Source: Pseudomonadota bacterium (GTDB lineage: Bacteria; Pseudomonadota; Gammaproteobacteria; Pseudomonadales; Ketobacteraceae). Taken from it: DNA of 64,000 nt. The stretch lies in NCBI GenBank assembly GCA_052035295.1, contig JBPOHS010000018.1:1-64000 (forward strand), written 5' to 3'. This document shows positions 1 to 42,530 of the stretch, piece by piece. A program made the translations under genes and the position numbers. The notes under the pieces were generated by a model. It was not told where the DNA came from. It saw only the letters and a list, made by a program, of their open reading frames with translations, and ran no database searches. Position 1 is the stretch's first letter, and every line of letters begins with the position of its first letter.

Positions 1-742
1 GCACCGACGTACAACACGTAGAACAGATATTTGCGTTCCCGCACGGTAATGAAAATGAACAGGTTGTAGAGCATCAGCACCACCATGGCGCCGTAATAAA
101 TCCCGTGCAGAATGGCCTGGGTTTGCATGTGCCCGATCAGCGTATGCACTTCCCACAGGGTGGCGGGAACTTGCACGCTGCTGCTCGTCTGTACCCGCAT
201 CGTGACCGTGGTGACGCTTTTGCCACTGAGATCCAGCGGTATGACGAAGTTGCGATGCTGCACCGGGCGTTGTGAATACGGAAACTTGTCGCCGAGTTCA
301 TAGCGGGCGACCAGTTTTCCTTCCCGCTCGACATAAATGTTCAGGTAGTCCAATACCGGATACCCGATTTCAAGAAAGCGGCGCAGGGTGTGGCGTTCCT
401 TGTTTTCGAGGCTGAACGTCAGCCAGTAGGCGGCATCGGTATAGCCAAAACTCATCCCGGTGGCGTTCGGCTTGGAGGAATGCCAGTTGGGTACCGCCCT
501 GGCGTCGGCGTAACTTAGCGTGCCCGACTCATCCACCAGGTATTGCATGCGGGCACCAATGTCCAGCACATGGGTCTGCTGATCCACCATCAGCAACTGG
601 AAGGGGGATTCATCGGTGGTGTCTGCCCATCCTGCCACCGCGCCAAATCCTGCACAGGCGTAGACGAGCCACAGGCAAAAGCTGCGTGTGCTGGCGCTTG
701 TAAACGTGAGCAAATTCAACACGGCCCGGAGTGAGTTCATCA
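1..742 (-). CDS. 7TMR-DISM family receptor, N-terminal part only (extracellular 7TMR-DISMED2-like domain plus start of the 7TM region); the gene runs off the window start
   Basis: Reverse-complement translation from the ATG at 742-740 is open to position 1: MNSLRAVLNLLTFTSAS...VPATLWEV...HGIYYGAMVVLMLYNLFIFITVRERKYLFYVLYVG. The NSVFP-like, YL-x-I/V-K and YG-x-FFG-x-L-x-YNLF blocks are the same ones seen in the three DISM kinases at 32935-42334. The ORF is absent from the supplied track because it is truncated by the window edge. Confidence 0.65.
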
Positions 743-15414: not shown

Positions 15415-18400
15415 TCAGCTTGCCTTGGCAAATACCGGTGGGGTGATGTAGTACTGATCCGGCAGCGTGATCAGGATAATGAAACCACGGAAATCGTCGG
15501 TCTCTGCACCCTGGTCGAGGATCAGGTCGATGCCGCCGCCCACCGAGATGAGGAATTGCTTGACCGCATCCATGCCGACACCGCGCCCCGACACTTCCGA
15601 TACCTGATCGGTGGTCGAGAAGCCGGAGGCGAAGATGTAATTGGCAATGGTGTCTGCGGGTGGGCGTGGTGCGTCAGCCGGGTACAGGCCGCGCTCGACG
15701 GCTTTCTCATAGATCTTGCTGAGGGCAAGGCCACGGCCGTTATCCAGCACGGCGATGGTGACCTTGCCTTCCTTGCAGGCCGTGTTGATCCACACCGTAC
15801 CTTGTTCGGGCTTGCCTTTGGCTATGCGTTCTTCGGGCGACTCGATGCCATGATCCATGGAATTGCGCAGCAAGTGCATGAAGATATTGCTCAGAATGCC
15901 ATGGGCTTCGCCGCGGATGTAAACATTGCCGTGGTTGACGACGATATTGGGTTCGGCACGACCGATTTCCTTGGCGAGGGAAGTGGCAGAATGAATGACA
16001 TCGCCGATCACATCACCAATGGTTTTGGCTTCGACCGAGGCCAGCATGTTGTAGGTTTCCCTCACTACGCTGGCAACGTTGGATGGCAGCTTCTCGCCGG
16101 ACAGCTCGGTAATCTTCTGCAGTAGTGCCGAGGCGTGTTGCTTGTCGATACGTACTGCCGGGCCACCGCTGGTGCCGCGCCCGAGTTTTTCCTTGAAGAT
16201 GGAGTTGTATCGGCTGATGACCTGTTCACCAGTTTCCAGTTCGGCCAGCAGTTGTTCTTTCTGCCACTCAGACTCGTCGTTCTTACGCAGCTGATCGTAG
16301 GTGTTTTCGATCTTGTGCACCGTTTCGGTGATGTGCTTGAGCCCGTAAGTGCGCGCGTTGCCCTTGACCGTGTGAATGTTGCGGAACAGCTCGGCAATCT
16401 TGTCTTTGTCTTTCTCTTCGGTTTCCTGAATGATGTTGCGGCACTGGTCGACAAAATGGTACGAACCATTGATGAACTCGTTGAACTTCTCGCCATCGAC
16501 GGCCAGGATTTCGCCGATCATCATCAGCTCTTGTTTCTGACCTTCGGCTTCCGCCTGCAAGGCTTTCAGTTCGGTGACGTCGCGTACAGTAACCATCAGT
16601 TTGGTCACGACATCGTTTTCGTCGGTGATTGGGTCCCAATCCAGTTCAAGCAACTTGTCCGACTTGCCGTCGAACTTGAGTGTCAGCTCTTTGGCCAGCA
16701 GGTGCGAGTTGAACTCGTACATCATCGAGTCTTCGCCCACAATCGAGGAAACCGACGTGGTGGCGGCGTCGATAACGTCGACGCTGAGTGTCGAGTTGCG
16801 GAACAGCAAATCCACGAAGTTGCGGTTCGCGATGTTCGGTGTTTCGAAAATCGTTTCCAGATACGCGGCATATTCGGGGTGTATCAGGCCACCTTCGATA
16901 ATCGTGAACAGGCCCTGGTGCATGTTCGAGAGCATGTTCGCGATATCTTCGTTTTTCTGCTTCAGGGCGGCAGTACGTTCCTCGACTTTTTTCTCCAGGT
17001 TGCGGTTGTGTTCTTCGATCACTTCCACCATGCGGATGTTCTTGATGGTTGTCACCAAAGAGACCGCCACCGATGACACGAACTCGTAATCGCTGTCGGC
17101 AAAGGCCACGTTCTTGGTGTCGCCTGAGAAGTTCATGACACCAATGAGTATGTCCTTGTCGACCAGGGGAACGCAGAGCAGGGCGCGCGGCTTGTCCTTT
17201 TCGCCGGCCACATAGTGTTTGTCCTTGCTGGTATCCTGCACGAATATCGCTTTTTTGGATTCTGCGGCGCGACCAATGATGCCCTGACCCATGGTGAACG
17301 TGATCGCGCGATGCTCGCCCTCGGTCGCCATCGGCGGCAGAAACGCCTTGGCTTCCAGTTCGTGCGTTTTATTGAACAGATAGACAGATCCCTGCTCGAT
17401 ACCGATCTTGTCGGCCATGGCATGCAGCACCTCATCCAGCGCGGTATTCTGATCGCGCGCAGCGGCAAGGGTGCCACCAATCTTGTTGAGCTTGGCCAGG
17501 TCGATCATCTTCTTACGAATGGCCAGACGCATGGAGTTGAAGTTCTGGGTCGCGAGAATGAACAGCACAATCATGATGGCGATCGTACTCTTGAAGCCGA
17601 AACTCAGGCTGTCGCTCAATTCGGTCTGCAAGCGCATGAAAGTGGTATCTGCCGCTGCGAGAAGGTCATCAAGGCCATTGACCGATTTGCCGACCGTGGT
17701 TTTGGATTCGTTCAGTTTGATCTTGGCGGTTTCAATTTGCGTCAGCTCTTCGCGTTTGAATGAGACTAATCCGGGTTCCGCGTTGATGCCCGACTCAAGC
17801 GCTTTCAGCATGTCTCGGCTATTGGCCACCAGCCCATCCTTGTCAAAGGTGTTCATGTACTGGTCCACCATGTCGAGGGAGCGGGTCGTATCAGACATGA
17901 CGTAGTTCATATCGTCGACGGCCGTGTCGAGACGCGCCAGATCCGATGTGCGCTGGATTTCCTGCACCGTTTTTGACATGTTCGAAAGATAGGAATCGGC
18001 CTGGTTGGCGTTGCCGGCGGCTACTTCCATGTCTTTCGTATGTTCTGGTGGCGCCTGGTAATAAACGATGTCCATGTAGGAGTTGCCGACGTCATCGGCT
18101 TTCTGGATCAGATCGGCGGCCGCGTCATCGGTTTTCTTTTTGGCAATCAATTGGGCCAGTTTGGCGTCAAACATGGCATTGACCGCGACCTTGTATTCCT
18201 CGTAATTCTTTTTGATATCAGCGACCTGATTGCGCATCGCTTCGTCGTCTTTGGCCAGTGCTTCAAGCTTGTTGAACACGTCACTGAACTCAGCAGCGCC
18301 TTTCTCGAAGTCGTCATGGTAGGGTTTGATTTCGTCCTCAGTCAGCGCGTTGTAACCCAGAGCGCTGACGTTGGCGAGCTTCAATAGTTGAATCTGCACC

Positions 18401-18564
18401 TGGTTTGCAACGCGCACCACCGGCACGGCAGTTTCCGAGACCCGTTTGTTCGAGTCGCTGATGTCGTTCAGGTTCCAGAGTGAGTTTGAACCCGAGATCG
18501 CCAACAGCAAAAGTATGATGGCAAATCCCAGCCCGACTTTTTGGTTAAAACTGAGGTTAAGCAT
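15415..18564 (-). CDS. membrane-bound chemosensory-type histidine kinase: periplasmic helical sensor (between two TM helices), GAF, HPt (CheA P1-like) and CheA-type HATPase; no P2 or P5/CheW-like domain
   Basis: 1049 aa. TM1 is VGLGFAIILLLLAISG and TM2 is STIAIMIVLFILA near residue 330. The GAF region is ITFTMGQGIIGRAAESKKAIFVQD...LLCVPLV. The HPt region is ELFRNIHTVKGNARTYGL. The CheA-like N box is HLLRNSMDHGIE, with DNGRGL and GRGVGMDAV. The protein ends about 40 aa after the G2 box. Confidence 0.75.
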   Translation of the reverse strand: MLNLSFNQKVGLGFAIILLLLAISGSNSLWNLNDISDSNKRVSETAVPVVRVANQVQIQLLKLANVSALGYNALTEDEIKPYHDDFEKGAAEFSDVFNKLEALAKDDEAMRNQVADIKKNYEEYKVAVNAMFDAKLAQLIAKKKTDDAAADLIQKADDVGNSYMDIVYYQAPPEHTKDMEVAAGNANQADSYLSNMSKTVQEIQRTSDLARLDTAVDDMNYVMSDTTRSLDMVDQYMNTFDKDGLVANSRDMLKALESGINAEPGLVSFKREELTQIETAKIKLNESKTTVGKSVNGLDDLLAAADTTFMRLQTELSDSLSFGFKSTIAIMIVLFILATQNFNSMRLAIRKKMIDLAKLNKIGGTLAAARDQNTALDEVLHAMADKIGIEQGSVYLFNKTHELEAKAFLPPMATEGEHRAITFTMGQGIIGRAAESKKAIFVQDTSKDKHYVAGEKDKPRALLCVPLVDKDILIGVMNFSGDTKNVAFADSDYEFVSSVAVSLVTTIKNIRMVEVIEEHNRNLEKKVEERTAALKQKNEDIANMLSNMHQGLFTIIEGGLIHPEYAAYLETIFETPNIANRNFVDLLFRNSTLSVDVIDAATTSVSSIVGEDSMMYEFNSHLLAKELTLKFDGKSDKLLELDWDPITDENDVVTKLMVTVRDVTELKALQAEAEGQKQELMMIGEILAVDGEKFNEFINGSYHFVDQCRNIIQETEEKDKDKIAELFRNIHTVKGNARTYGLKHITETVHKIENTYDQLRKNDESEWQKEQLLAELETGEQVISRYNSIFKEKLGRGTSGGPAVRIDKQHASALLQKITELSGEKLPSNVASVVRETYNMLASVEAKTIGDVIGDVIHSATSLAKEIGRAEPNIVVNHGNVYIRGEAHGILSNIFMHLLRNSMDHGIESPEERIAKGKPEQGTVWINTACKEGKVTIAVLDNGRGLALSKIYEKAVERGLYPADAPRPPADTIANYIFASGFSTTDQVSEVSGRGVGMDAVKQFLISVGGGIDLILDQGAETDDFRGFIILITLPDQYYITPPVFAKAS

Positions 18565-18779: not shown

Positions 18780-19148
18780 TCAGCCGGTTACCAGTTTCTG
18801 GATCGCACCCAGAGCGTTGGCACCATTGAATGGCTTCACGATCCAGCCTTTTACGCCAGCGGCTTTACCGCGGTTTTTCATGTTGGGATCATTTTCGGTG
18901 GTCAGCATGATGATGTTGACGTTCTGGTTGCCCAGTTCGCTGCGCACCTTCTCAACCATCGTCAAGCCATCCATGTTGGGCATGTTGACGTCAGAGATGA
19001 TCAGTTTCAGCTCGCGGTCAGCCTTGATTTTCGCAAGGCCATCCTTGCCGTCCACGGCGGTTTCCACATTAAAATTTTTCGATTTCAGGAAGGCGCTCAC
19101 TTCATTGCGGATTGCGGCGCTGTCATCAACTACGAGTATCTGGGCCAT
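18780..19148 (-). CDS. CheY-like single-domain response regulator
   Basis: 122 aa. All receiver residues are present: DD (VVDDS), the phospho-Asp (IISDVNMP), T (LTTE) and K (VKPF). Confidence 0.85.
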   Translation of the reverse strand: MAQILVVDDSAAIRNEVSAFLKSKNFNVETAVDGKDGLAKIKADRELKLIISDVNMPNMDGLTMVEKVRSELGNQNVNIIMLTTENDPNMKNRGKAAGVKGWIVKPFNGANALGAIQKLVTG

Positions 19149-19205
19149 TTTGAATTTCCTTCGTTGTCGCTTACCAACGGTTGATCATGTGCTGACGATT
19201 TGAGT

Positions 19206-20841: not shown

Positions 20842-21720
20842 CTATCCGTTGCTAGCGAGTGTATTGTTCAGCGTGTTGATTTGTGATTGAACACTATGTA
20901 TCGCCGTTACAATCATTTTTCCGCCGGCCTGCACGTCCTGGAAGGCGAGTGTGGCAATCAGCGCGTTCTTGTTCAGGTTGGTACGGTAATCTTCGTTGAG
21001 GTTCTGGGCGCGCATCGAGAGTTTTCTGACCTCATCCGCTACCACAGCGAATCCACGACCATGTTCGCCCGCACGCGCCGCTTCAATGGCCGCGTTGAGG
21101 GAGAGAATGCCGATCTGGCCGACGATGCTCTTGAAGTCGCCGATCTGCTTCTGCATGTTCTTGTTGTGCACCATGATGTCTGTCATGCCTTCATGCCAGC
21201 GTTCAATGGTTTCAGTAATGTCGAGGAGTTCCTGCACAGCGTTGCGTACCACGCCAATCTGCTGTTCCAGTTGCTGGTGCGTATATTGGGTCGAGCTGTT
21301 GATCTGGCTCAACTCCTGCTGCAACGACTGACGTGTGTGGCTCAATTCGTCCATCAGCGAGCGCTGGGCTTGTTGCGCCTCAAGTTGCTCCTGGGTCAGG
21401 GTTGAGCGCAGGTTGGATATTTCCCGTTCGCTGTTCTGTTTTTCGTTCAGCAGGATTTCTCGATCCACCATCTGTTGGCGCAACGACTCACTGTTGTTCA
21501 GTCGGGTTTCGAGTTCCCTGATCTTCTTGTCACGGCTGCTGCTGGCCATCCACCAGGTGATCGCACAGCCGAACAGCGCCAGCCCCGCCAGAGCGGGCGT
21601 TAGCCAGCCGGGTGCGCCAGAAGCAACGCTGGAGGCAGCATGACTGATACCGGGCAACGCTGTCAGTACGCTGCCACCGATGGCCATCGCGAGCACGGAG
21701 GTGTTTTGTCGCAACTGCAT
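20842..21720 (-). CDS. methyl-accepting chemotaxis protein, minimal type (membrane anchor, no periplasmic ligand-binding domain)
   Basis: The MCP signalling-domain core is [32 protein letters not shown]. Two hydrophobic segments lie within the first 60 aa. The protein is 292 aa. Confidence 0.8.
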
Positions 21721-31533: not shown

Positions 31534-31957
31534 AGTATGGTCAAAACATTTCAATAGCATCCAGTTGCGCAGCCTTGAACGGATTGGCGAGCTGTTTCTT
31601 CCTGCGCACGATCAATTGCCGGGGTTTGCCGAAAGTGGCTGCCTGGAGAATGTCGACATCGTTCTTGATGAAGTGCATCCCGATGACCGGATGGCGTTAG
31701 GCTTGTTCCTGTATGTGCTGAGGGTGACGCCGTTGTTTCTGGTCGGCAAATTCATCGGCATGATGGACACGCATCAGCATTATCCCGAGCCGATTGCCGG
31801 CGTTCTGCGCTTGCTCAATATTGCGCTCAAGGGCATCGTGATGAGCCTGTATTACTCTGGTTTGATGGGAGCGGGTTTGAGCGGTGCCTCGGGGCGGATC
31901 AGAAATCCGCTCGACGTACTCGATTTTGCCCCGCATTGTGAACCCGATGCCCACTGA
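31526..31957 (+). CDS. hypothetical small protein translationally coupled to the GMC oxidoreductase (possible accessory subunit)
   Basis: ATG 31526 is preceded by a GGAGG RBS and overlaps the GMC stop as ATGTCTGA. The protein is 143 aa. Its own stop overlaps the next gene's start by 11 nt. Confidence 0.5.
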   Translation: MSEVWSKHFNSIQLRSLERIGELFLPAHDQLPGFAESGCLENVDIVLDEVHPDDRMALGLFLYVLRVTPLFLVGKFIGMMDTHQHYPEPIAGVLRLLNIALKGIVMSLYYSGLMGAGLSGASGRIRNPLDVLDFAPHCEPDAH

Positions 31958-32957
31958 TTTTCGCCCCCTTTTCCGTTGGTCACCGGTACTGCGCGAGCGT
32001 CTGCCCTGGCAACCGCTTGCCGACCTGCCGACGCCGGTGTCGCCGTTGCCGATGGCGACCAACGCTTGGATAAAGCGCGACGATATCTCGCATCCTGAAT
32101 ATGGCGGCAACAAGATCCGCAAGCTGGAATTCATTCTGGCCGAGGCCCTGGCCAAAGGTGCCAAGCGCATCATAACGTTTGGAGCGACTGGCACCAATCA
32201 CGGCGTGGCAACCGCCATGATGTGCGCGCAAGCCGGTCTGGAATGCGAGATATTGTTGTTTGATCAGCCCGATTCAGCCACGGTGCGCGGCAACCAGAAA
32301 CTGATGCGCCACTACGGCGCCTCGTTGATATATTGCGGCAGTCTGGCCGCCACCGTCACGCGTTATTACTGCCACCCCGCGCGCATGCGTCGCGACGCTT
32401 ATTTCCTTTTCGCGGGGGGATCCAATGTGGCGGGTACCTTGGGGTTTGTGAATGCCGCCATGGAAGTCGTCGATCAGGTCGCGGCCAACCAGTTGCCCAT
32501 GCCTGAACAGATTGTGTGCCCGGTGGGGTCGAGCGCAACGCTCGCAGGCCTGACCCTGGGTTTCCAGTGGCTGAATCTTCCGGTGCAAGTCGTCGGAGTG
32601 CGCGTGGCGCCGTCTCATCTGGGGCCATTTGCGGCCTGTACGGTCGAAAGCGTAGCCCGGCTCATGGAAAAGACTCGCCATTCGACACAGAAAATGACAG
32701 ACAAGCGCTTGCCTGCGCCGATAACGCCGATATTGCTGGACCAGTATTACGGCAGTGGTTACGGCGAGGCCACGGTGGCGGGGAAGGCGGCGCAGCGCGC
32801 TTTCGATGTCGCCGGTTACAAGTTGGAACAGACTTATTCAGCCAAAGCAGCGGCCTGTTTTCTGGAACGGGCGGCCAGTACACCTGGCCCCGTGTTGTTC
32901 TGGAATACTTTCAACTCCCGATCGGTGGCGACGCTTACGCAATCCGTTGCGTCGTAA
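31947..32957 (+). CDS. PLP-dependent enzyme of the ACC deaminase / D-cysteine desulfhydrase family
   Basis: DDISHPEYGGNKIRKLEF is the lysine-containing PLP motif of this family. The protein is about 336 aa. ATG 31947 is preferred to the upstream GTG at 31884. Confidence 0.7.
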   Translation: MPTDFRPLFRWSPVLRERLPWQPLADLPTPVSPLPMATNAWIKRDDISHPEYGGNKIRKLEFILAEALAKGAKRIITFGATGTNHGVATAMMCAQAGLECEILLFDQPDSATVRGNQKLMRHYGASLIYCGSLAATVTRYYCHPARMRRDAYFLFAGGSNVAGTLGFVNAAMEVVDQVAANQLPMPEQIVCPVGSSATLAGLTLGFQWLNLPVQVVGVRVAPSHLGPFAACTVESVARLMEKTRHSTQKMTDKRLPAPITPILLDQYYGSGYGEATVAGKAAQRAFDVAGYKLEQTYSAKAAACFLERAASTPGPVLFWNTFNSRSVATLTQSVAS

Positions 32958-35823
32958 TCGGACTATTGCCCAGGTATTGTTCGAGCGTCTGGTAGAACAC
33001 TGGCCGTTCGATCGGTTTGCCAAGAATTGCGGTGAATCCCGCCTGCTCGTAGCTGGCGGTTTCGCCCTTGATAACGTTGGCAGTAAGGGCAATGATGGGC
33101 ACCGTGAAACCTTGTTTCCGCAGGGTTTGGGTGGCTTCGATACCTGACAGCACCGGCATCTTGATATCCATGAGAATGAGATCGAACGGCTGCTTCTGCA
33201 GCGCATCGACGGCTTCCTGACCGTTGTTGACGACCGTCAGCTGCACGCCGCAATCCCGCAGCATGAGTGCCACCAGACGTTGGCTGTCCTGGTTATCGTC
33301 GGCATAAAGAACACGGCCACTCAGTTTCGGTACCTGAATTTGCGTTGTCGCGGCAGATTCAGAGGCGCGATTGGCGTCATCGAGCGACGCAACCCATTCT
33401 CGCCGGTTGGGAACACCGCCCCCTACATACACCGTGAAACAGCTGCCTTTGCCCGGCTGGCTGGTGACTTCAATCGTGCCACCCATTTTTTCCGCCAGTT
33501 GTTTCGAAATGACCAAGCCCAACCCGGTGCCGCCGAATTGACGGGCGGTGGACGCTTCTGCCTGGGAATAGGATTGGAACAGCTTGCCCAGTTGTTCTTC
33601 GGTCAATCCCGTGCCGGTATCGATGACTGAAAACCGCGTCAGTTGACGGGCTTCGTCCCAGCCGACATCGACAGTAACGCCGCCGTCGCGGGTGAACTTG
33701 ATGGCGTTACTGCAAAGATTGAGCAGAATCTGCTTGAGACGCGTCGGGTCCGCCGTGATCTGGTTGGGCAATGGGAAATGGTATTCGATATTGAACGACA
33801 GATTCTGGTTCTTGGCTTTCTGCGCAAAATAGGAATACACATCCTTCATCAGCACATAGGGATTCACAGGCATTTTTTCGACGTCGACGATCGAGGCTTC
33901 CACCTTCGAGAAATCGAGGATGTCGTTGATGATGTTGAGAAGGTGATGACTGCTGCGAATGACAGTATCAATCGCTTGCTGTTCTTCGACATCGGTGAGC
34001 GTGTTGTCGTTGAGCGATTCGCTGTAACCGATGATGGCTGTCAGCGGCGTCCGGATTTCGTGGCTCATGTTGGCCAGAAAATCACCTTTGGCTGCCGCAG
34101 ACGCTGTAGCCAGTTCCTTTTCCAGTTTGTCGATTTCGCGATCCTGCTCGGCGCGTTCGCGCTCCTTGCGCTCGGTGATGTCGGTCAGCGAGCCTTCGAT
34201 ATGGCTGGGCAGACCGTCGGCACCGCGTATCATTTGCGCGAAATGGTCTACCCACATGGTTTTTCCATCCTTGCGGGTGTAGCTGACTTCCATTTGCAGC
34301 CGACCGCTCCAGGCCAATTGCTGAAACTGCGGCTCGCCGCCGGGGAAACAGAGATCCACGGCTTCATTACCGGCACGGCGGAGTGCTTCCACCGAGTCAT
34401 AGCCAAGCAGTTTTGCCATCGCCGGATTTGCGCTTACAAACTTGCCCGAAGTCGACATGCGGTACATGCCTTCAATGGCGTTGTTGAACGTGGAACGGAA
34501 GCGCGCCATGTTCTGTATGGCACGTTCGTTGGCTTCCAGTGCTTCGCGTTGCAGACGCTTGATACGATCGGCCAGTGAAAATGAAATCATGACCGCACCG
34601 GTGAGAAACCCGATCGGCGCGCCGGCGAGGTATATCGGCGCTGAGGGCAAAATTTTCAGCAATGCCAGCGCCTGGGTTGCGCCGCCGGCCACAGTGAGAA
34701 ACCAGCCAATTGAAAAATAGACCGCGTTTTCGTTTTTCCTGGACCAGCTGTAAAAACTGATGCCGAGTATCAAGACCAGGCCGAAAAAGGTGAATCCGCT
34801 CAGCCAGGTGCTGACCACATTTTTGTCTATCAGAAAACTGGTCAACAGATAGATCAGCACGAAAGACTGCAAAAAACGCAGGAAATGATCGATGCGACGG
34901 TGATAGCGCGGTGTATCGAGGAAGTTGCGCGTGAACATGATGATCATCCACCAGGTCGACCAGATCAACGGCGATGTGTAGGTGGTCTTGGCAAACGTGC
35001 GGGAGTCTTCGAACAGGGTGAGCCCGTGTCCCATTTCGATGAATTCAAAACTGGTGATCCCGAATAGATAAAGCACGAAATACAGGTAGCTGACATCGCG
35101 TACTGAAAAATACACGAACAGGTTGTAGAGCATGAGTATCAACATGCCGCCAAAGAACACGCCGTAAATCAGCTCTTGGTCCGCAACGTTTTCGATGAAC
35201 TTCTTCGGTGTCCACAAATTGACGGGAAGAATCAACGCGTTATCACTTTTGATACGCAGATAGTAGGTCTGCTTCTGATCGAGATAAGTCGTGATCGGGA
35301 ACACACTGTTGGAGTGGCGCACTTTCCGCGCGGAATAAGGTTTGCGCAGGTCCACTGATTCGCGGAGGTAGGTGCCGTCCTTGTTGGGGGAGTAGAGTTC
35401 GCAGGATTGAAGCTGGGAACGTGCGACCTCCAGGTACCAGCTCTTTTCCTGATCCTGGTTGTTGTTCCAGGAAGGATAATCGATGGTGATCGCCAGCCAG
35501 AATACCGAGTTGGTCAAGCCAAAGTTATGGGCGTCTGTTTTTCCTTCGTTCCAGGTGAACTGGTCCTGGATGTCGGGGCGCTGGATATCGTCAATGGTGA
35601 GCTTGCCGTCCTTGTCTTCCAGGGTCCTGACGACACCGTTGAGGGCATAGTGTTCGCCATTCCTGTAAAGCACCGCTTCGGGGCTACCGTCAAGATGCGG
35701 GACGAGGGTGTTTTCGCTGAACGCGTCGAACAAGGGCAACGACGCATGCACCCCTGCCGTGGAGAAAAGGGATGCCAGTGCCAGAAGCACAAGCAACAGA
35801 TAACGGCGGTGCTGATGGTGCAT
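32935..35823 (-). CDS. 7TMR-DISM hybrid sensor histidine kinase (7TMR-DISMED2 / 7TM / PAS / HisKA / HATPase / REC), with a canonical H-box
   Basis: A signal peptide is followed by an extracellular domain with NSVFPIT and YLRIK blocks. The 7TM region begins YGVFFGGMLILMLYNLF. The H-box is MSHEIRTPL, the N box is LLNLCSNAIKFT, the G boxes are DTGTGL and GGTGLGLVIS, and the REC is FDLILMDIKMP. The 3' end overlaps the convergent PLP-enzyme gene by 23 nt. Confidence 0.85.
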   Translation of the reverse strand: MHHQHRRYLLLVLLALASLFSTAGVHASLPLFDAFSENTLVPHLDGSPEAVLYRNGEHYALNGVVRTLEDKDGKLTIDDIQRPDIQDQFTWNEGKTDAHNFGLTNSVFWLAITIDYPSWNNNQDQEKSWYLEVARSQLQSCELYSPNKDGTYLRESVDLRKPYSARKVRHSNSVFPITTYLDQKQTYYLRIKSDNALILPVNLWTPKKFIENVADQELIYGVFFGGMLILMLYNLFVYFSVRDVSYLYFVLYLFGITSFEFIEMGHGLTLFEDSRTFAKTTYTSPLIWSTWWMIIMFTRNFLDTPRYHRRIDHFLRFLQSFVLIYLLTSFLIDKNVVSTWLSGFTFFGLVLILGISFYSWSRKNENAVYFSIGWFLTVAGGATQALALLKILPSAPIYLAGAPIGFLTGAVMISFSLADRIKRLQREALEANERAIQNMARFRSTFNNAIEGMYRMSTSGKFVSANPAMAKLLGYDSVEALRRAGNEAVDLCFPGGEPQFQQLAWSGRLQMEVSYTRKDGKTMWVDHFAQMIRGADGLPSHIEGSLTDITERKERERAEQDREIDKLEKELATASAAAKGDFLANMSHEIRTPLTAIIGYSESLNDNTLTDVEEQQAIDTVIRSSHHLLNIINDILDFSKVEASIVDVEKMPVNPYVLMKDVYSYFAQKAKNQNLSFNIEYHFPLPNQITADPTRLKQILLNLCSNAIKFTRDGGVTVDVGWDEARQLTRFSVIDTGTGLTEEQLGKLFQSYSQAEASTARQFGGTGLGLVISKQLAEKMGGTIEVTSQPGKGSCFTVYVGGGVPNRREWVASLDDANRASESAATTQIQVPKLSGRVLYADDNQDSQRLVALMLRDCGVQLTVVNNGQEAVDALQKQPFDLILMDIKMPVLSGIEATQTLRKQGFTVPIIALTANVIKGETASYEQAGFTAILGKPIERPVFYQTLEQYLGNSPITTQRIA

Positions 35824-35890
35824 GATGATCTGAACCCTGAAGGGGGTGCCCGCCAGCGGGCACAAGCTTCCTTTTTAAATCGCTACCGGT

Positions 35891-36523
35891 TTACTTGTTG
35901 TCGGCTTTGGATTTCGTGTCTCCACGGGTAAATGCGTCGATCGGGAAAGGATCTTCTTCACTACCCGCCTCGTCGGCGGCAAGGCTACCCGGTACGGGTT
36001 CCGTCTCTTCAGGCGCCTTGATGATCTTGATGGCGGTGATGAAAAGGGTGATCGATGCCACCAGCATCAGAGGTTGAATGTAGGCCACGATGCCCGGCAC
36101 GGTTTCGGTACCGCTGAGCTTGATCGTCAGGATAACGGAGGGGGTGAGCACCAGGAAAAGGGTGATCGAAACGATGAACAGGATGCGTTCCTTGTAAACG
36201 CCGAAGTCCCTGTGGCTGATCAAGCCCTGAACAAACTTGCTGATGCTGAGGCCGGCGAAAATGGTCGCAGCCACCGAAATTTCGTTACCCAATAGCAGCT
36301 TGTCGATCTGTCCTTCCCAGAGACGTTGTACCAGGATCCCGAGAAAGGGCAGCAGCACGAACAGGATGTCGGCATAGGTGCCTTGCCGCAACCGCTTGAA
36401 TTCGCGCTCTTCCAGGGCGACAAGTTGCGCCGTCCTCGCGTCGACGGCTGTTTGTTCCTTTTCGTCTTCCATCTTTGTTTCCTGATCCAACCGATTAATT
36501 TCAGGCATAACGATCTTGAGCAT
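35891..36523 (-). CDS. hypothetical small integral membrane protein (3-4 TM helices) embedded in the DISM kinase array
   Basis: This is the 210-aa ORF. The start may instead be the internal MEDEK at 36472. It is hydrophobic with a charged C-terminal tail. Confidence 0.45.
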   Translation of the reverse strand: MLKIVMPEINRLDQETKMEDEKEQTAVDARTAQLVALEEREFKRLRQGTYADILFVLLPFLGILVQRLWEGQIDKLLLGNEISVAATIFAGLSISKFVQGLISHRDFGVYKERILFIVSITLFLVLTPSVILTIKLSGTETVPGIVAYIQPLMLVASITLFITAIKIIKAPEETEPVPGSLAADEAGSEEDPFPIDAFTRGDTKSKADNK

Positions 36524-36570
36524 ATAAATTCAGCGTAGATGATTTTTCCATAAATGCCTGCTTGTCCAAA

Positions 36571-39417
36571 TTATTGTTGGCCTTCCTGCCTTGTCTCAGG
36601 TGATGCGGCCTCGAGATGCTGGGCCAGTGTGGCGTAAAACGCTGGTATATCAACGGGTTTGGTCAGATGCCCCTGACATCCGGCGTCAATGCACTCTTTG
36701 ATGACCTCGCTGTCGTGTTCCGCGGTCAGGGCGAAAATCGGGAGCGTCATCCCTTGTGATCGCAACAGCCGGGTGGCGGTCAGCCCATCCATGATCGGCA
36801 TGTTGATATCCATCAACACAAGATTGAACGTACCTTGCTGCGCCAGCTCAACGGCGCGTTGGCCGTTGTCGGCAAGGCTGACTATCGCACCGGTTTTGGA
36901 AATCAGGCGCGTGATCAGCTTCTGGTTGACCACATTATCCTCGGCAAGCAAAACATTGCCCAATAGCTGCGGTACGCCACCAGACGACTTACGCTCGCCG
37001 GGTATTGAAACACTGTTGACCCAGTCATCGCGGCCGGCGATCTTGCAGGCGATGCCCACGCTGAACCGGCTGCCAAAGCCCTTCCGGCTGTCTATATGCA
37101 GATCGCCACCCAGCATACGAACGAGCTGGTGGGTGATGGCCATGCCCAAGGTTGCGCCCAATGTGCTGTTATCAGTGGCGGATTGCAGGGACGCATTCAT
37201 CAAGTGGTCAATTTCTTTTTCGGTGAGACCGTCGCCACTGTCCTCCACGTCAAATTCAAGCTGCTGCTTGATCCCATCCCAACGAACAATAACTTTGACT
37301 GATCCCTTGTGTGTGTGCTTGATTGCATTGCTGCAGAGATTTTGCAAGACCTGTCTGATTCGCGTCGGGTCACTGATGATGCGCGCTGGCAAGGGGAATC
37401 GGCAGTCGACCCGGAACGTTAACTGCTTTTCCCTGGCGATGGGCTCAAACTGGTCCCTCACCTGTTGCAGCAGCGCCATGAGATCAATGTCAATGGCTTC
37501 GATGGCCAGTTTTCCTGCTTCTATTTTGGAAAAATCGAGAATGTCGTTTACCAGCTGCAATAGCGTTTGTGAATTGCGAATGACGGCGCTGACGGCCAGT
37601 TGACGTTGCTGCGCGTCACCGGAGTGATCAAGCATGGATTCGCTGAACCCGATAATCGCATTCAACGGCGTGCGAATCTGGTAACTCATGTCCTTGAGGA
37701 AATTGCTTTTTGACTCGGTGGCATATTTTGCAAGCTCTTTCTCGTGCCGCTCAGTGAGAAATGCGCGTTGAGCTTTCTCGTTCTCATGGCGATCAGTGAG
37801 ATCAATCAGTGTTCCTTCGATGTGGCTCGGTTGGCCGTCACGCTTCAGGATGATGCGGGCTGAATGTATGGCATGACGAACTTTACCGTTGGTGTCTATC
37901 AATGAAATTTCATCACGGATTTGTCTCGATTGATGCAGTGTTCGTAGCGACGTGCCCTGATGCTTGAAAAGCAGGTTGGCCGCCATTTTATTGTGCGACA
38001 TAAGGCGCTCTGTCGAACCAAATCCGAGAATACCTGCCATCGCGTTATTGGCATCCAGCAGCCGGCCGTTCAGCGTCATCTGGTAAATGCCTTCGGCGGC
38101 ATTGTCAAAAAAGGACCGGAAGCGTTTGAGGTGTGTCACGGAGCGCACTCTTGCTCCGATCACCTGGTTGCGGGTCTGCTTGATGCGTTCGCCCAGCACG
38201 AATGCCAGGGTGGTGACTTCCAGCAGTATGCCAACAGCCATGGACGCAATCGTGAAACCATTGGGAGGCAGCAAGCCGGTTGCTAGTCCCGCATAAAGCA
38301 GATAGCCGATCACGGCGAAAAGCCATGCCATGGCCATGAGCCCGGCGTTGGTGTCACTGTGCTTTCGCCAATGATAGATACCCAGTATCACGATCAGCCA
38401 GGATGCGCTGCTGCAAAAGAACGATGTAAACAGCAGGGCGATATGCATTGGTATCAGGTAACTGATCACGCAGGCGACGGCCATGAAAACGCAAAGGGAT
38501 TTGAAGCACGCGTAGACCACGGGGGAACGCTTTGGAATGCTCAGAAAAAATTGTACGAACATCATTCCCGATATGGTACCGATCCAGACACAAAGAACGA
38601 TGATCCGCTTGTCAAGAAATTGCGGAAACGCTTCGAACAATCGCATGCCATGTCCGATTTCGATGAATACAAACAGGGTCACCGGAACAAGATAGCCGAC
38701 GTAGTAGAAATAGGTGATTTCACGAATCGCCACCAGCAGGAAAAGGTTATAGAGAATCATGACCAGCATGCCGCCAAAAAACACGCCATAGAGGATTTCA
38801 TAGGTCGTATCGATGACCATGAAGTTGGGCGGCGTGCGCAGGTGTATCGGCAGGAACGTGGAGCCGGTATTGCGAATCTTTAAATACAATACGACCGATT
38901 CCCCTTGTTCAGTGACCAAGGGGAAGACACTGTTGACATTGCGAATCGGTCGCTCAGAATAAGGGATGCGCAAATCAGACTGCATTTTTGTCACATCGCC
39001 ATTGGCTCTTACTACGTAGAGTTCCGCCACATCCAGTCGGGCGCGTCGGACGTCGATAAACCATTCCCTACGTGGGGTGGCAAATTTTTTTTTGTCGATG
39101 TGTCTCAGCTCGATCGTCAACCAGTGAGTCGTTGCGCTCATGCTGAAATTAATGTAGTCACTTTCGGGTTTGGAGAACAGTACCCGTGCATCCGGTTTGG
39201 AGACATCTTCGAACGTGAGATTGCCTTCCGGGTCATCTAACGTCCTGAAATAGGGGCCAAGGTCGTACTCCTCTTGTTCGGAAACGACGATGAAATCATG
39301 GTTTTTCTTCTTTGCCTCCGCTGGCTGGCTGAAACACAGCATGAACAACGGGACAAGAATGGCAGCCCAGATTGCAATGAAACGCACGAATGTGGCCGGG
39401 TTTCCGGGCTTATGCAT
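36571..39417 (-). CDS. 7TMR-DISM hybrid sensor kinase paralog with a Tyr at the H-box phospho-acceptor position
   Basis: ATG 39417 has a GGAGG RBS and lies 2 nt after the upstream paralog's stop. The domain order is the same as the 32935-35823 gene. The H-box reads MSYQIRTPL (Tyr codon at 37681-37683). The G2 region is degenerate (GATLGMAI). The REC Asp is retained (FNLVLMDINMP). Confidence 0.8.
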   Translation of the reverse strand: MHKPGNPATFVRFIAIWAAILVPLFMLCFSQPAEAKKKNHDFIVVSEQEEYDLGPYFRTLDDPEGNLTFEDVSKPDARVLFSKPESDYINFSMSATTHWLTIELRHIDKKKFATPRREWFIDVRRARLDVAELYVVRANGDVTKMQSDLRIPYSERPIRNVNSVFPLVTEQGESVVLYLKIRNTGSTFLPIHLRTPPNFMVIDTTYEILYGVFFGGMLVMILYNLFLLVAIREITYFYYVGYLVPVTLFVFIEIGHGMRLFEAFPQFLDKRIIVLCVWIGTISGMMFVQFFLSIPKRSPVVYACFKSLCVFMAVACVISYLIPMHIALLFTSFFCSSASWLIVILGIYHWRKHSDTNAGLMAMAWLFAVIGYLLYAGLATGLLPPNGFTIASMAVGILLEVTTLAFVLGERIKQTRNQVIGARVRSVTHLKRFRSFFDNAAEGIYQMTLNGRLLDANNAMAGILGFGSTERLMSHNKMAANLLFKHQGTSLRTLHQSRQIRDEISLIDTNGKVRHAIHSARIILKRDGQPSHIEGTLIDLTDRHENEKAQRAFLTERHEKELAKYATESKSNFLKDMSYQIRTPLNAIIGFSESMLDHSGDAQQRQLAVSAVIRNSQTLLQLVNDILDFSKIEAGKLAIEAIDIDLMALLQQVRDQFEPIAREKQLTFRVDCRFPLPARIISDPTRIRQVLQNLCSNAIKHTHKGSVKVIVRWDGIKQQLEFDVEDSGDGLTEKEIDHLMNASLQSATDNSTLGATLGMAITHQLVRMLGGDLHIDSRKGFGSRFSVGIACKIAGRDDWVNSVSIPGERKSSGGVPQLLGNVLLAEDNVVNQKLITRLISKTGAIVSLADNGQRAVELAQQGTFNLVLMDINMPIMDGLTATRLLRSQGMTLPIFALTAEHDSEVIKECIDAGCQGHLTKPVDIPAFYATLAQHLEAASPETRQEGQQ

Positions 39418-42307
39418 TTTGTGCCTCCTGCTCGTGCAGGCAGCTTGCCAGTACCTCGTAAAATGCTTCAATGTCGATGGGCTTGGTCAGGTGCCCATTG
39501 CAACCGGCATTCATGCTCGCACGAATTTCCTCCAGACCGTGTTCGGCCGTCAGTGCATATATGGGGCCGTCATAGCCCTTTTCCCGCAAAATGCGCGTGG
39601 CTTCGAGCCCTCCCAGCACGGGCATGTTGACATCCATCAAGATCAGATCGAAGGGTGAACTCAGGGCGGCATTACGTGCCTGTTCACCGTCACTCACGAC
39701 AACGGCCTCGACACCGGTTTTTCCAATGATGCGGGCAATCAGTTTCTGATTGACCAGGTTGTCCTCGGCCAGCAGTACACGCCCCGACAGTTGCGGCACT
39801 TTGCGCGCGGCAGTGGATTTCTTTGTAGTAATTTCAGCACTTGAAACCCATTTTTCCCGCGAAGGCGTGCGGCCACTGATACTGGCCGTGAAAGTACTGC
39901 CCTGGTCCTGAATGCTCTTCACTCGCAGGCTGCCGCCCAGCATCTGCGTTAACTGGCGTGTGATGGCGATACCCAGCCCACCTCGCTGCAACACGTCGGA
40001 AGAGGCAACGGATGAATTCGTGTGCTGCAACAGACCAAGATCCTTGGGGGTGAGCCCCGGGCCGGTGTCACTGACATCGAAGCACAACTGTTGGTTGGCG
40101 GCATCCCAGTAAACACGTAACGTCACCTTGCCGTGATAGGTGTGTTTGATAGCGTTGCTGCAAAGGTTCTGCAGAATTTGTTTGAGTCTCGTGGGATCGC
40201 TGGAAATGCGCGGCGGTAAAGGCCAATCATACTGCATCTCGAAAGTCAGCGATTTTTGGCGGGCCTGTGGCACAAACTGCGAGTTAACGCCTGCAAGCAG
40301 ATGCAGCAAATCCGTGTCGATTTGCTCGATGGGCATTTTGCCGGCTTCTATTTTGGAAAAATCCAGAATGTCATTGACCAGTTGCAGCAACGTTTGCGCG
40401 TTGGCAACGATGGTGTTGATGGCGCTGGATTTTGCCTCGGCTGGCAGGGTCGACGATTTGAGGGACTCACTGAATCCGATGATGGGGGCGAGTGACGACC
40501 GGATTTCAAAACTCATGTTTTTCAGAAACCGGCTTTTGGCCTGGGTCAAGGCTTCCGCTTTGGCCTTTTCGTGTCGTTCGCGCACTCGCTCGCGCTCAGC
40601 TTGTTCCCGTTCAAAACGTTCCGTGATGTTGACCAGCTTTCCTTCGATGTAGGACGCCTGGCCATGAGTGTCGCGGACCAGATAGGCGGAGTGCATCGCG
40701 ACATACGCGCTGCCATCGGCACGCAGGCGATGTATCTCGGTGCTGACCGGCTTGCCTCGCATAAGTTCGCGCCACTGCCGCGCAGGATCATCGAAAATGT
40801 CGTGGACCGTTTTTTTACCTGAATGCAGAAGTTTTTTGACCGACGGGAACCCCAGAATTTGTGCCAGGGCCGGATTGGCATTGATCAATCGGCCGCGCAG
40901 CGTCATCTGATAAATGCCTTCCAGCGCGTTATCGATGAGCGAGCGATAGCCGGCAAGATGTTGCATGGAAAGCGTATTGGCCTGCAAAGTTTCTTTCTGG
41001 GTGCGCTTGATGCGTTCAGCCAGCGCAAACGAGAGCATGACGGCTTCCAGCCACGTGCCCAATGGCATCGACGCAATGAAAAGCGGGGTCGCGGGCGCGC
41101 GCCCCGTTGCCACGCTGGAAAGTATGATGAAGCCCGTTACGTTGAAGATCCATGCCAGGGTGAAATACGAAGCGCTCTTGTTGCCTTTGTACCAGACGTA
41201 GGCGCCGACCAATGGCATGGTCGAGACCGCATAACCGCAAAAATAGACAGATACCACCAGTGACAGTTTGAAGGGCAGCATGAAGCAGAAGGCCGCGCAG
41301 ATCAGTGAAAAAATGAACAGCGGAGTCAGGAACTGATTCAGCAGCGGGTGGCGTTTGGGAATTTCAAGAAAACGCCGGGTAAACAGGAATGACGATAACC
41401 ATGTGCACCAGATGGCAATCGGAACATACTCCTTGTTGAACCATGTTCGGCCCTCTTCATGCCAGGCCGCGCCATGGCCGAGGTCTATTGCCTCAAACAC
41501 CAGTGCAGACACCAGATAGGCGGAATAATAAACGTAACTCAGGTCGCGGATCGAAACATACAGGAACAGGTTGTAGACGATCATGATCAGCATGCCGCCA
41601 AAAAAAGCGCCATACAAAAATTCTTCACTTGTTGTTTTGCGAACGAATTCGCCGGGTTCCCAGATCGTCAGTGGAATGTAAAACGCAGAGATGTTTTTGA
41701 CCCGCAAGTAGAGCGTTATGGTTTCTCCCTTGGGCGTGGTGATCGGGAAGACACTGTTGACCATGCGTAGCGGTCGTTCTGCGTAGGGGATCCGGATGTC
41801 GGCTTGATAGCGTGACAGGCTGCCGTCTTCCCGCTGAACATATAATTCGGCGGTATTGAGTTGCGCCTTGCCTACTTCGAAATACCAGTTTGTGACCGGT
41901 GGATGCCGTTTGCGATTGGGTTCATAGCGAAGTTGCAGGCGAATCCAGTAGGTGGAATCGCTGTAGCCGAAATTCAGATAATTTTGTTTGGCATCAGTAA
42001 ATTTGTCGGTGAATTCACTGGAAGAGACCTCTTCGATGTTCCATTGGCTGGCGGGATCTTCCAGCAGGGTAATGTAGGGTGTCACCGCATAGTGTTCGGC
42101 ATCCACCAGTGGCATTACCTGACCGCTCAGCGACTCGTCGGCGACTGCCACTGCCGGCAAGGTGGCGCTGGTGATAATGACCAGCGTCAGCCGCAATACC
42201 TGCGCCAAGCATTGCTTGTAAATGACGGGCACAGTCACAAAGGCCAGCGCTTTTTTGCGGCACAGCCATACAGAGACGAGAATTACCCATGCATTTGTTG
42301 ACGACAT
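39410..42307 (-). CDS. 7TMR-DISM hybrid sensor kinase paralog with a Phe at the H-box phospho-acceptor position
   Basis: The domain order is the same. The H-box reads MSFEIRSSL (Phe codon at 40508-40510). The G2 region is GGLGIAI. The REC Asp is retained (FDLILMDVNMP). The start is ambiguous between ATG 42307 and TTG 42334. Confidence 0.8.
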   Translation of the reverse strand: MSSTNAWVILVSVWLCRKKALAFVTVPVIYKQCLAQVLRLTLVIITSATLPAVAVADESLSGQVMPLVDAEHYAVTPYITLLEDPASQWNIEEVSSSEFTDKFTDAKQNYLNFGYSDSTYWIRLQLRYEPNRKRHPPVTNWYFEVGKAQLNTAELYVQREDGSLSRYQADIRIPYAERPLRMVNSVFPITTPKGETITLYLRVKNISAFYIPLTIWEPGEFVRKTTSEEFLYGAFFGGMLIMIVYNLFLYVSIRDLSYVYYSAYLVSALVFEAIDLGHGAAWHEEGRTWFNKEYVPIAIWCTWLSSFLFTRRFLEIPKRHPLLNQFLTPLFIFSLICAAFCFMLPFKLSLVVSVYFCGYAVSTMPLVGAYVWYKGNKSASYFTLAWIFNVTGFIILSSVATGRAPATPLFIASMPLGTWLEAVMLSFALAERIKRTQKETLQANTLSMQHLAGYRSLIDNALEGIYQMTLRGRLINANPALAQILGFPSVKKLLHSGKKTVHDIFDDPARQWRELMRGKPVSTEIHRLRADGSAYVAMHSAYLVRDTHGQASYIEGKLVNITERFEREQAERERVRERHEKAKAEALTQAKSRFLKNMSFEIRSSLAPIIGFSESLKSSTLPAEAKSSAINTIVANAQTLLQLVNDILDFSKIEAGKMPIEQIDTDLLHLLAGVNSQFVPQARQKSLTFEMQYDWPLPPRISSDPTRLKQILQNLCSNAIKHTYHGKVTLRVYWDAANQQLCFDVSDTGPGLTPKDLGLLQHTNSSVASSDVLQRGGLGIAITRQLTQMLGGSLRVKSIQDQGSTFTASISGRTPSREKWVSSAEITTKKSTAARKVPQLSGRVLLAEDNLVNQKLIARIIGKTGVEAVVVSDGEQARNAALSSPFDLILMDVNMPVLGGLEATRILREKGYDGPIYALTAEHGLEEIRASMNAGCNGHLTKPIDIEAFYEVLASCLHEQEAQNA

Positions 42308-42465
42308 TCCCTTTACCAGCCTTGGCTCTGGCAACCGATTTGCCCTGTGTAGCCAGACAGTTACCGTTTAAGTGTAGGCGAGTTTACCGGTCGTGCCGGG
42401 ATGGCGTCGGAAATCAGAAAACTACTTGAAAAACAGGGAATTGGTGAAGTGCAGTGGCTGTTGAT

Positions 42466-42530
42466 GCGAAAGGAGTTGTGGATACGAAGGCGTGGTGATG
42501 CGAAGGCGTGGGGATGCGCTGGCAGGGGGC
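42466..42530. repeat. four tandem copies of an approximately 16-bp unit (GATGCGAAGGCGTGGN) between the Fe-ADH gene and the first DISM kinase gene
   Basis: The copies read GATGCGAAAGGAGTTGTG, GATACGAAGGCGTGGT, GATGCGAAGGCGTGGG and GATGCGCTGGCAGGGG. They are followed by the hairpin GCGCTGGC-agggg-GCCAGCGC. Confidence 0.5.

Follow-up and report, generated by a model that had tools for sequence, protein, structure and literature searches.

Tandem DISM hybrid histidine kinases without the phospho-acceptor histidine as candidate modulators of a co-encoded canonical paralog in a gammaproteobacterium

The window analyzed here is a stretch of 64,000 nucleotides (nt), positions 1 to 64,000 of contig JBPOHS010000018.1 (GenBank assembly GCA_052035295.1), from a gammaproteobacterium of the Ketobacteraceae. 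Its minus strand carries an array of three paralogous hybrid histidine kinases with 7TMR-DISM receptors (A, B and C) and a gene for a small membrane protein (S). In paralogs A and B, the phospho-acceptor histidine of the H box is replaced by Phe and Tyr, respectively, the ATP lid is degenerate and the receiver is intact, while C is canonical in all kinase motifs. The loss of the histidine in A and B is old and has been maintained by selection; it is due neither to error nor to decay. By analogy with RetS/GacS, A and B are probably (with a probability of roughly 0.6) sensing pseudokinases that modulate C in a cis-encoded multikinase network. The features of the array are as follows.

39410..42307, minus strand: paralog A, DISM hybrid pseudokinase with F600 at the acceptor position; 965 amino acids (aa) as called; the open reading frame (ORF) reaches 42334
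40508..40510, minus strand: codon for the Phe that replaces the H-box histidine in A (MSFEIRSSL), position 11 of the Pfam HisKA model
39962..39991, minus strand: degenerate ATP-lid/G2 region of A (LQRGGLGIAI), two residues shorter than in C, F box lost
39620..39646, minus strand: receiver phospho-acceptor motif of A (LILMDVNMP, D892), from the alignment
39410..39417, minus strand: 8-nt overlap of the A stop and B start codons, ATGCATAA
36571..39417, minus strand: paralog B, DISM hybrid pseudokinase with Y579 at the acceptor position; 948 aa; from Pfam and alignments
37681..37683, minus strand: codon for the Tyr that replaces the H-box histidine in B (MSYQIRTPL), from alignments
37135..37161, minus strand: eroded G2 region of B (LGATLGMAI), with two residues fewer than in C and without F box
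36796..36822, minus strand: receiver phospho-acceptor motif of B (LVLMDINMP, D870), from the alignment
35891..36472, minus strand: S, 193 aa, four hydrophobic helices by alignment and hydropathy
32935..35823, minus strand: kinase C, canonical DISM hybrid histidine kinase, 962 aa, with H588 and receiver D886; N, G1, F and G2 boxes intact
34060..34062, minus strand: His codon (H588) of C (MSHEIRTPL), by the alignments the only canonical phospho-acceptor histidine of the array

As a preliminary description of the window had it, A, B and C are three long minus-strand ORFs that are all paralogs and share one domain order. Along each protein, 7TMR-DISMED2, 7TMR-DISM_7TM, PAS, HisKA, HATPase_c and Response_reg follow one another, every one scoring above its Pfam cut-off. 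The two receptor families were recognized far over their cut-offs, with 95-114 bits for PF07696 and 108-137 bits for PF07695. The coordinates and lengths used here are those of the gene calls in independent assemblies, together with the signal peptides, and not those of the longest ORFs; the 976, 966 and 974 aa given previously were longest-ORF values, which are replaced by 965 (A), 948 (B) and 962 aa (C). Likewise, the 2-nt gap previously placed between A and B turned out to be an 8-nt overlap. The ATG of B (39417-39415) lies upstream of the TAA of A (39412-39410), with AGGAGG seven nt upstream, an arrangement that suggests translational coupling. The 3' end of C overlaps a convergent PALP-family gene (31884-32957, plus strand) by 23 nt (32935-32957), and no terminator-like hairpin was found between the two. 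A promoter and terminator scan of the array gave counts at chance level, with no hit in the B-S or S-C gaps.

The register of the H box was determined in three ways. First, the Pfam HisKA match in each of the three proteins begins at the first position of the model, so that Phe, Tyr and His fall on one model position; this is the profile check that the preliminary description had proposed. Second, MAFFT alignments placed the three residues in one column. Third, in phmmer searches, 'nmsfeirs' of A paired with 'NMSHEIRT' of a GacS-like chain and with 'ISHEIRT' of RetS. Since the three methods agree, the register is secure, and the residues and codons originally named at the acceptor position were reproduced by translation and alignment. 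The histidine required of a competent HisKA kinase is replaced by Phe in A and by Tyr in B and is present in C alone. No alternative conserved histidine was found in the helices of the domain for dimerization and histidine phosphotransfer (DHp) among orthologs of A or B. A loop histidine at +19 in B was considered as a substitute acceptor and rejected, as it is missing from four orthologs. The residue at His+1 is Glu in A and C, whereas B has Gln in place of this catalytic acid; the orthologs of B carry Gln or Arg here and read Y-[Q/R]-IRTPL. A role for the Tyr of B as a phospho-acceptor similar to that in DivL is unlikely, because the B ortholog of the gamma proteobacterium HdN1 has Phe, His+1 is Gln or Arg, and the lid is degenerate. 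The earlier proposal that A and B are unable to use the canonical residue for autophosphorylation is strongly supported and can be extended: as described below, conservation in orthologs, synteny, purifying selection and independent assemblies mark the two as functional pseudokinases.

Members of the A orthogroup have Ser or Ala instead of the usual Pro at His+5, and a Pro has newly become fixed at His+8 (region 40484-40510 of the window); the basal Tyr-type member, cluster P0010, retains the canonical TPL. The helix kink beside the acceptor site was therefore remodelled in this orthogroup alongside the change from His to Phe.

The catalytic and ATP-binding (CA) domain is degraded in the same two paralogs. 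C has the lid FGGTGLGLVI and canonical N, G1, F and G2 boxes. In A and B, the Asn of the N box and the Asp of the G1 box are still present, and the full set of ATP-binding motifs is not: the erosion of the G2 boxes described before is real and is accompanied by the loss of the F box. A double Gly-to-Ala mutant in the G2 box of GacS is unable to bind ATP (PMC8498467). By alignment, one of these two glycines is missing in each of A, B and K0, a further paralog encoded in related arrays. We infer from the sequences that A and B have lost ATP binding and autophosphorylation. The receivers present the opposite picture. The phospho-accepting Asp is kept, as already noted in the preliminary description, and the active site (DD, D, T, K) is complete in all three paralogs of the window, as it is in each of the 19 array proteins compared across five genomes. 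Of the phosphatase motif E/DxxT/N of HisKA kinases, A keeps ExxT/S and B keeps xxxT.

The substitutions are authentic. The 9.7-kb DNA of the array was 100% and 99.99% identical in two assemblies from different read sets. In a search of 5.8 billion proteins, orthologs of A formed 11 clusters (50-100% identity), with Phe at the acceptor position in 10 of the 11 and Tyr in one basal cluster. Orthologs of B formed eight clusters; in seven, Tyr is followed by Gln or Arg, and the HdN1 protein has Phe-Arg. Thus, the same substitutions recur in orthologous arrays, where it had been suggested that they be sought, and Phe and Tyr are conserved in orthologs of 50-70% identity. The frames of the degenerate copies, about 950 codons each, are intact in every genome. 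Sequencing error or misalignment as the source of the Phe and Tyr codons is ruled out by the independent assemblies, the three concordant alignments and the conservation in orthologs.

Selection was quantified as the ratio of non-synonymous to synonymous substitution rates (dN/dS) for the close pair of loci L001 and L007. The lowest ratios were obtained for C (0.022) and S (0.023), followed by the neighboring gene for an iron-containing alcohol dehydrogenase (Fe-ADH; 0.040). The ratios for the degenerate copies were 0.084 (K0), 0.111 (A) and 0.089 (B). These copies are under clear purifying selection, although it is more relaxed, by a factor of four to five, than the selection on C. A and B combine recognizable HisKA and HATPase_c domains, a replaced histidine and maintenance by selection, which are the sequence hallmarks of a histidine pseudokinase.

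The domains are not conserved to the same degree. Compared with the closer relatives L006 and L007, the orthologs of C were 95-98% identical in DHp, 96-98% in CA, 83-90% in the receiver and, at the lowest, 65-71% in DISMED2. For the orthologs of K0, A and B, the values were 70-76% (DHp), 47-65% (CA; 31-48% to HdN1), 69-74% (receiver) and 51-72% (DISMED2). The most conserved domains are therefore DHp and CA in C, and DHp and the receiver in K0, A and B, where CA ranks among the lowest. This pattern supports a changed function of the degenerate copies. The sensor domains of the paralogs are just 33-37% identical to each other, which is compatible with different ligands.

The array in the window is evidently a deletion derivative of a four-kinase operon that is conserved as far as HdN1. 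In four other genomes, the gene order is Fe-ADH, K0, A, B, S, C: a metagenome-assembled genome labelled Moraxellaceae (L001), the complete HdN1 genome (L005; HDN1F_20650-20680 region) and two metagenome contigs (L006 and L007). Every kinase-kinase junction in these four genomes is a 4-nt overlap. The synteny extends further upstream and includes GAF-GGDEF-EAL, FKBP and pterin dehydratase genes. The window array has no K0. Two features mark the place.

42214..42307, minus strand: ~34 codons left over from the start of K0 and joined in frame to A, as seen when the nucleotides are aligned with the ADH-K0 stretch of L001, L006 and L007
42564..43748, minus strand: Fe-ADH, the upstream neighbor in all five genomes by their gene tables, given for context

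From about 42440 to 42214, the window is homologous to the intergenic region between ADH and K0 and to the start of K0 (compare L001 6806-7260 and L007 1980-2440). The switch from the K0 remnant into the signal peptide of A lies near TTTACAA|GCAATGC. An in-frame deletion therefore removed K0 and joined its start to A, and it was found in all three assemblies of the source organism. The fusion makes the N-terminus of A chimeric and leaves it with two hydrophobic segments.

A motif table of the 19 proteins from the five genomes showed C to be canonical in all boxes, while K0, A and B share the shortened lid. The acceptor residue of K0 is His in three genomes and Tyr in L006; that of A is always Phe, and that of B is Tyr, with Phe in HdN1. 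K0 and B of HdN1 are without N and G1 boxes as well. In a neighbor-joining tree, (K0,(A,B)) formed a long-branched clade that is sister to the C clade together with His-bearing outgroups. The simplest history compatible with these sequences would be a duplication of a C-like kinase, the loss of the lid in the upstream lineage and repeated loss of the histidine thereafter. The acceptor residue likely changed from His to Tyr to Phe; both steps are single-nucleotide changes.

How widespread the loss is was examined with A as the query of an exhaustive phmmer search against 1.84 billion representatives, and the 90 nearest DISM-kinase representatives were scored. The histidine was missing in nine of the 90 (five Phe, two Tyr, one Gly, one Arg). 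All nine were among the ~33 nearest, which are upstream-type clusters, and make up about a quarter of the nearest clusters at 50% identity. In several other upstream-type clusters, the histidine is kept and N, G1 or G2 is lost. The receiver Asp was retained in every surveyed representative that spans the receiver region. The receivers of the two types can be told apart by their signatures, LLAEDNxVN, ALTAE and [ST]KP in the upstream type versus LYA[DE]DN, ALTANV and [GA]KP in the C type. Copies in which the histidine was lost independently (to Gln, Cys, Gly, Arg, Phe or Tyr) are L012 4363-7635, L010 3885-7163, L015 1034-3895 and the representatives P0179, P0184, P0194, P0195, P0204 and P0205; some of them have an intact G2 box, in others the entire CA domain is ruined, and the receiver Asp is always retained. 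The upstream copies of Gammaproteobacterium 42_54_T18 and L010 have Gln or Cys at the His position and an intact G2 box. The order of losses therefore varies by lineage.

The genes for the small protein S and for C show the highest conservation in the array; S is ~73% identical between the window and HdN1 by BLASTP, which is similar to the value for C. No Pfam family matched S. An AlphaFold2 model built with 17 homologs was of low confidence (predicted local distance difference test score of 55) and contained four long helices only. Homologs of S, down to 28% identity, adjoin DISM hybrid kinases in every locus examined. The contexts outside the arrays described above are as follows.

Marinobacter nitratireducens: a kinase with REC-REC-Hpt (two receivers and a histidine phosphotransfer domain), then S, then a single receiver
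L010/L011: a DISM paralog upstream, two small genes in a gap, S, a DISM kinase
Gammaproteobacterium 42_54_T18: K1, K2, S, K3
L013: an A-like copy, a Y-type copy, S, C
L015/L016: an F-type pseudokinase with a ruined CA domain, an S-like gene, a canonical kinase; all three genes overlap

Thus, a minimal module of pseudokinase (U), S and C exists in the distant lineage L015, where U is without N and G1 boxes and its gene is nevertheless intact.

On the reading given at the outset, each pseudokinase would sense its own extracellular cue through its divergent DISMED2 domain and tune the single real kinase, C. Two routes may be envisaged. First, DHp-DHp hetero-oligomerization of a pseudokinase with C would alter the autophosphorylation of C. 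Second, phosphoryl groups that C has made would pass to the receiver of the pseudokinase or be drained through it. RetS acts on GacS by both routes. The roles suggested earlier for A and B, as heterodimerizing partners, phosphatase or receiver scaffolds or ligand-sensing modulators, are plausible and agree with the conservation of the individual domains and with the example of RetS and GacS (PMC8498467). They would draw on the parts that K0, A and B have retained, namely their own DISMED2 sensor, the 7TM region, PAS, the DHp hairpin and a receiver with a full active site. Physical interaction of A and B with C and S, as well as the direction of phosphoryl flow, is predicted here from the sequences. 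Neither an Hpt domain nor a DNA-binding regulator was found at the locus in any genome examined, based on gene tables and, for the window, on Pfam and a purpose-built Hpt hidden Markov model; the output of the system presumably lies elsewhere in the genome.

Several points weigh against this reading. First, two F-type pseudokinases are orphans on their contigs, with no C-type kinase there (L014 8804-11596 and L017 5717-8521), and an operon partner is therefore not obligatory. Second, A retains the N-box Asn, the G1-box Asp and the Glu at His+1 in all orthologs, and residual nucleotide binding or another catalytic role of A is possible. Third, we infer heteromerization with C only from co-encoding, paralogy and the conservation of DHp. 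Fourth, the analogy is incomplete, as RetS has two receivers and its histidine and GacS has an Hpt domain, none of which is true here. Finally, the topology of the fused A in this genome, and hence its function, is uncertain.

Among the alternatives, the one that survives best, although it is unlikely, is that A and B are separate homodimeric receptors that never touch C and drain the pathway depending on ligand, either as phosphate sinks whose receivers compete for a shared Hpt by reverse phosphotransfer or with a DHp that has kept its transmitter-phosphatase activity alone. In strain PA14 of Pseudomonas aeruginosa, two sensors divide the kinase and phosphatase roles between them, with a need for the Thr at His+4 but not for the histidine (PMC3842833). 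The remains of the phosphatase motif (E-x-x-T/S in A, x-x-x-T in B) would fit such a division of labor, as would the receiver active sites, which are intact in every degenerate copy, the rank of the receiver among the most conserved domains, and the existence of orphan F-type copies. However, B has Gln or Arg for the acidic residue of the motif, and a shared intermediate is hypothetical since no Hpt was found at the locus in the genomes examined. The tight translational coupling and the constant company of S and C favor a physical complex instead. The two accounts also overlap in part, as RetS does both.

It is improbable that A, and perhaps B, bind ATP and serve as trans donors, i.e., activating subunits whose CA domains phosphorylate the histidine of C in heterodimers. 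GacS-type kinases do autophosphorylate in trans (PMC8498467), the N-box Asn and the G1-box Asp are present in all A orthologs and in most orthologs of B and K0, and dN/dS is well under 1 over the whole gene. Against this, CA is the least conserved domain in the degenerate copies, all of which have lost the F box and carry a shortened G2 box. K0 and B of HdN1 and U of L015 are without N and G1, yet their genes are still intact, and RetS, with a comparable lid, binds no ATP (PMC8498467).

A little less probable again is a purely structural or localizing role similar to that of PsmA or DivL, in which the copies would be phosphorylation-independent scaffolds and both the H-box residue and the receiver Asp would be irrelevant. 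The receiver Asp of PsmA is indeed dispensable (PMC12963549), and DivL senses the state of a response regulator (PMC4211667). Yet receiver catalytic residues that are invariant in 19 array proteins, and an Asp kept in all receiver-spanning representatives, are unexpected if phosphorylation does not matter, and the conserved extracellular sensor and 7TM region point to signal input. That the Phe and Tyr codons are erroneous, or that A and B are recent pseudogenes, is hardly credible: non-synonymous sites of A and B do change about 4-5 times faster than those of C and K0 has been deleted in this genome, but independent assemblies match, Phe and Tyr are conserved at 50-70% identity, frames of ~950 codons are intact and dN/dS is ~0.1.

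The interpretation of A and B as sensing modulators of C may be extended, tentatively and with clearly less assurance, to a recurrent unrecognized U-S-C module, in which C and S would join with between one and three DISM pseudokinases that bind ligands to form a single hetero-oligomeric membrane receptor. Such a receptor would be a bacterial counterpart of the eukaryotic pairs of kinase and pseudokinase receptors, with combinatorial ligand sensing by the dead subunits gating one active site. The series from K0 (lid lost) via B and A (histidine lost) to K0 and B of HdN1 (N and G1 lost) would then record the stepwise birth of pseudokinases after duplication.

The surroundings of the two orphan F-type copies differ from those of the arrays. 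One of the copies (L014 or L017) is adjoined by lipase, lipase-chaperone and transposase genes. The other lies beside TetR and AraC regulators and an outer-membrane transporter of the TodX/FadL type. These neighborhoods hint at a link with hydrophobic substrates. HdN1 is an alkane degrader.

Upstream of the array, two further elements were found.

42335..42440 (core 42345-42400), minus strand: conserved block, presumed promoter or leader, CCCGGCAC...CTCGCCTACACTTAA.C.GTAACTG, homologous to the DNA that precedes K0 in relatives
42462..42518, strand not assigned: tandem repeat, unit TGATGCGAAGGCGTGG, period 16 nt, 3.4 copies, just past the Fe-ADH stop, from the repeat scan

No match to the sigma-70 consensus above chance was found in the conserved block, and a sigma-54 reading was rejected by inspection, as its spacing is unsuitable. 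The block may serve as a leader element or bind a regulator. Tandem repeats upstream of the array had been reported at 42466-42530; the repeat exists, at 42462-42518, but it is not a conserved feature. It sits in an intergenic stretch that cannot be aligned with relatives, which carry other AT-rich repeats there, and it was rejected as a regulatory site for this lack of conservation. The repeat is probably incidental, and the spacer seems to be a variable, repeat-prone stretch.

Elsewhere in the window, four genes with receptor or signalling domains were noted.

3-740, minus strand: fragment of a DISM receptor by Pfam, N-terminal 246 residues with DISMED2 and the first 7TM helices, running off the window
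15415-18564, minus strand: CheA-like kinase with 4HB_MCP/CHASE3-like, GAF, Hpt and HATPase_c domains and no HisKA; the sole Hpt found in the window, 14 kb from the array
18783-19184, minus strand: single-domain receiver beside the CheA-like kinase, from the Pfam scan
20842-21720: short MCP-signal protein near the CheA-like kinase

The first of these had been counted, at 1-742, as a fourth copy. None of the array paralogs is more than 33% identical to it, and its nearest match (40%) is an unrelated cluster of DISM hybrid kinases (P0018). The fragment is thus a distant DISM receptor and not a member of the array, and at this identity to every array paralog it was also rejected as a displaced K0. 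The Hpt of the window belongs to the unrelated CheA-like kinase. Rfam and tRNA scans of the window found nothing.

The locus offers a compact natural model, with active and dead paralogs of the same architecture in one translationally coupled operon. Stages of degeneration (lid, histidine, catalytic acid, N and G1 boxes) are preserved across copies and genomes, and a complete four-kinase version is available in HdN1, which has a complete genome sequence. Loss of the histidine is recurrent within one DISM subfamily. If the hetero-oligomer model is true, this would be a cis-encoded multikinase network in which signal integration by pseudokinases would be open to genetic and biochemical dissection. 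No description of tandem DISM pseudokinases or of S was found in the literature searched, the coverage of which was incomplete, so that an earlier description is possible. The concept of histidine pseudokinases is already established; new here are the cis-encoded, paralog-based module, the recurrent loss of the histidine and the dedicated small membrane protein.

To our knowledge, the known histidine pseudokinases are a handful of isolated cases (DivL, RcsD, PsmA and, functionally, RetS). RetS and LadS are hybrid kinases of Pseudomonas aeruginosa with 7TMR-DISMED2 and 7TM domains (PMC8498467, PMC4866733). RetS has lost ATP binding; its DHp-DHp interface with GacS blocks trans-autophosphorylation, and it siphons phosphoryl groups via its histidine kinase region and receiver (PMC8498467). 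A and B resemble RetS in the combination of a DISM sensor and a histidine kinase region, and the part of the lid that is degenerate in A, B and K0 is also the degenerate part in the RetS structures 6dk7 and 6dk8. In contrast to A and B, with one receiver and a replaced histidine, RetS keeps its H-box histidine and has two receivers. The partner GacS is an unorthodox kinase with another sensor and an Hpt domain, whereas the candidate partner C is a paralog of the same architecture without Hpt. Furthermore, the RetS and GacS genes are unlinked, while the array genes form one translationally coupled operon with a conserved protein of four transmembrane helices. The identity to RetS is only ~30% and is confined to DHp-CA (E-value of 1e-24), no nearer than generic kinases. 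With a single receiver, the histidine lost, no Hpt in the candidate partner and no special similarity to RetS, A and B are not RetS orthologs.

DivL of Caulobacter crescentus, the structure of which (4q20) was among the PDB sequence matches, likewise has Tyr in place of the histidine of a HisKA-type DHp; DivL is a conserved, functional protein that regulates the genuine hybrid kinase CckA (PMC4211667, PMC12189002). HisKA phosphatase activity needs the motif E/DxxT/N beside the histidine and can persist without the histidine itself (PMC3842833). Unlike A and B, DivL is cytoplasmic and PAS-based, has neither a receiver nor a DISM sensor and is not a paralog adjoining its target; in the array, moreover, Tyr is only one state of a series from His to Tyr to Phe. 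In RcsD (YojN)/RcsC and PvrS/RcsC, a kinase-like membrane protein without transmitter histidine and a genuine hybrid kinase are encoded nearby, and PvrS/RcsC of P. aeruginosa PA14 splits kinase and phosphatase or relay functions over two sensors (PMC3842833). However, the functional module retained in RcsD is Hpt rather than the receiver, RcsC of PA14 still has its histidine, and RcsD, RcsC and PvrS have no DISM sensors or multi-copy paralog arrays. PsmA of Streptomyces shares with A and B a hybrid architecture, a histidine that is variably replaced, conservation in its family and, in vitro, no autophosphorylation (PMC12963549). It differs in being cytoplasmic, in binding DivIVA, in lacking the E/DxxT/N motif, in its dispensable receiver Asp and in the absence of a paralogous active partner.

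The subfamily-2 ethylene receptors of plants have degenerate histidine kinase domains without the histidine, some with a receiver, and form heteromers with kinase-competent paralogs. They serve as an analogy only, being eukaryotic, with an unrelated sensor and with output through CTR1. Among all of these systems, RetS/GacS is, by analogy, likely the closest to A and B in mode of action.

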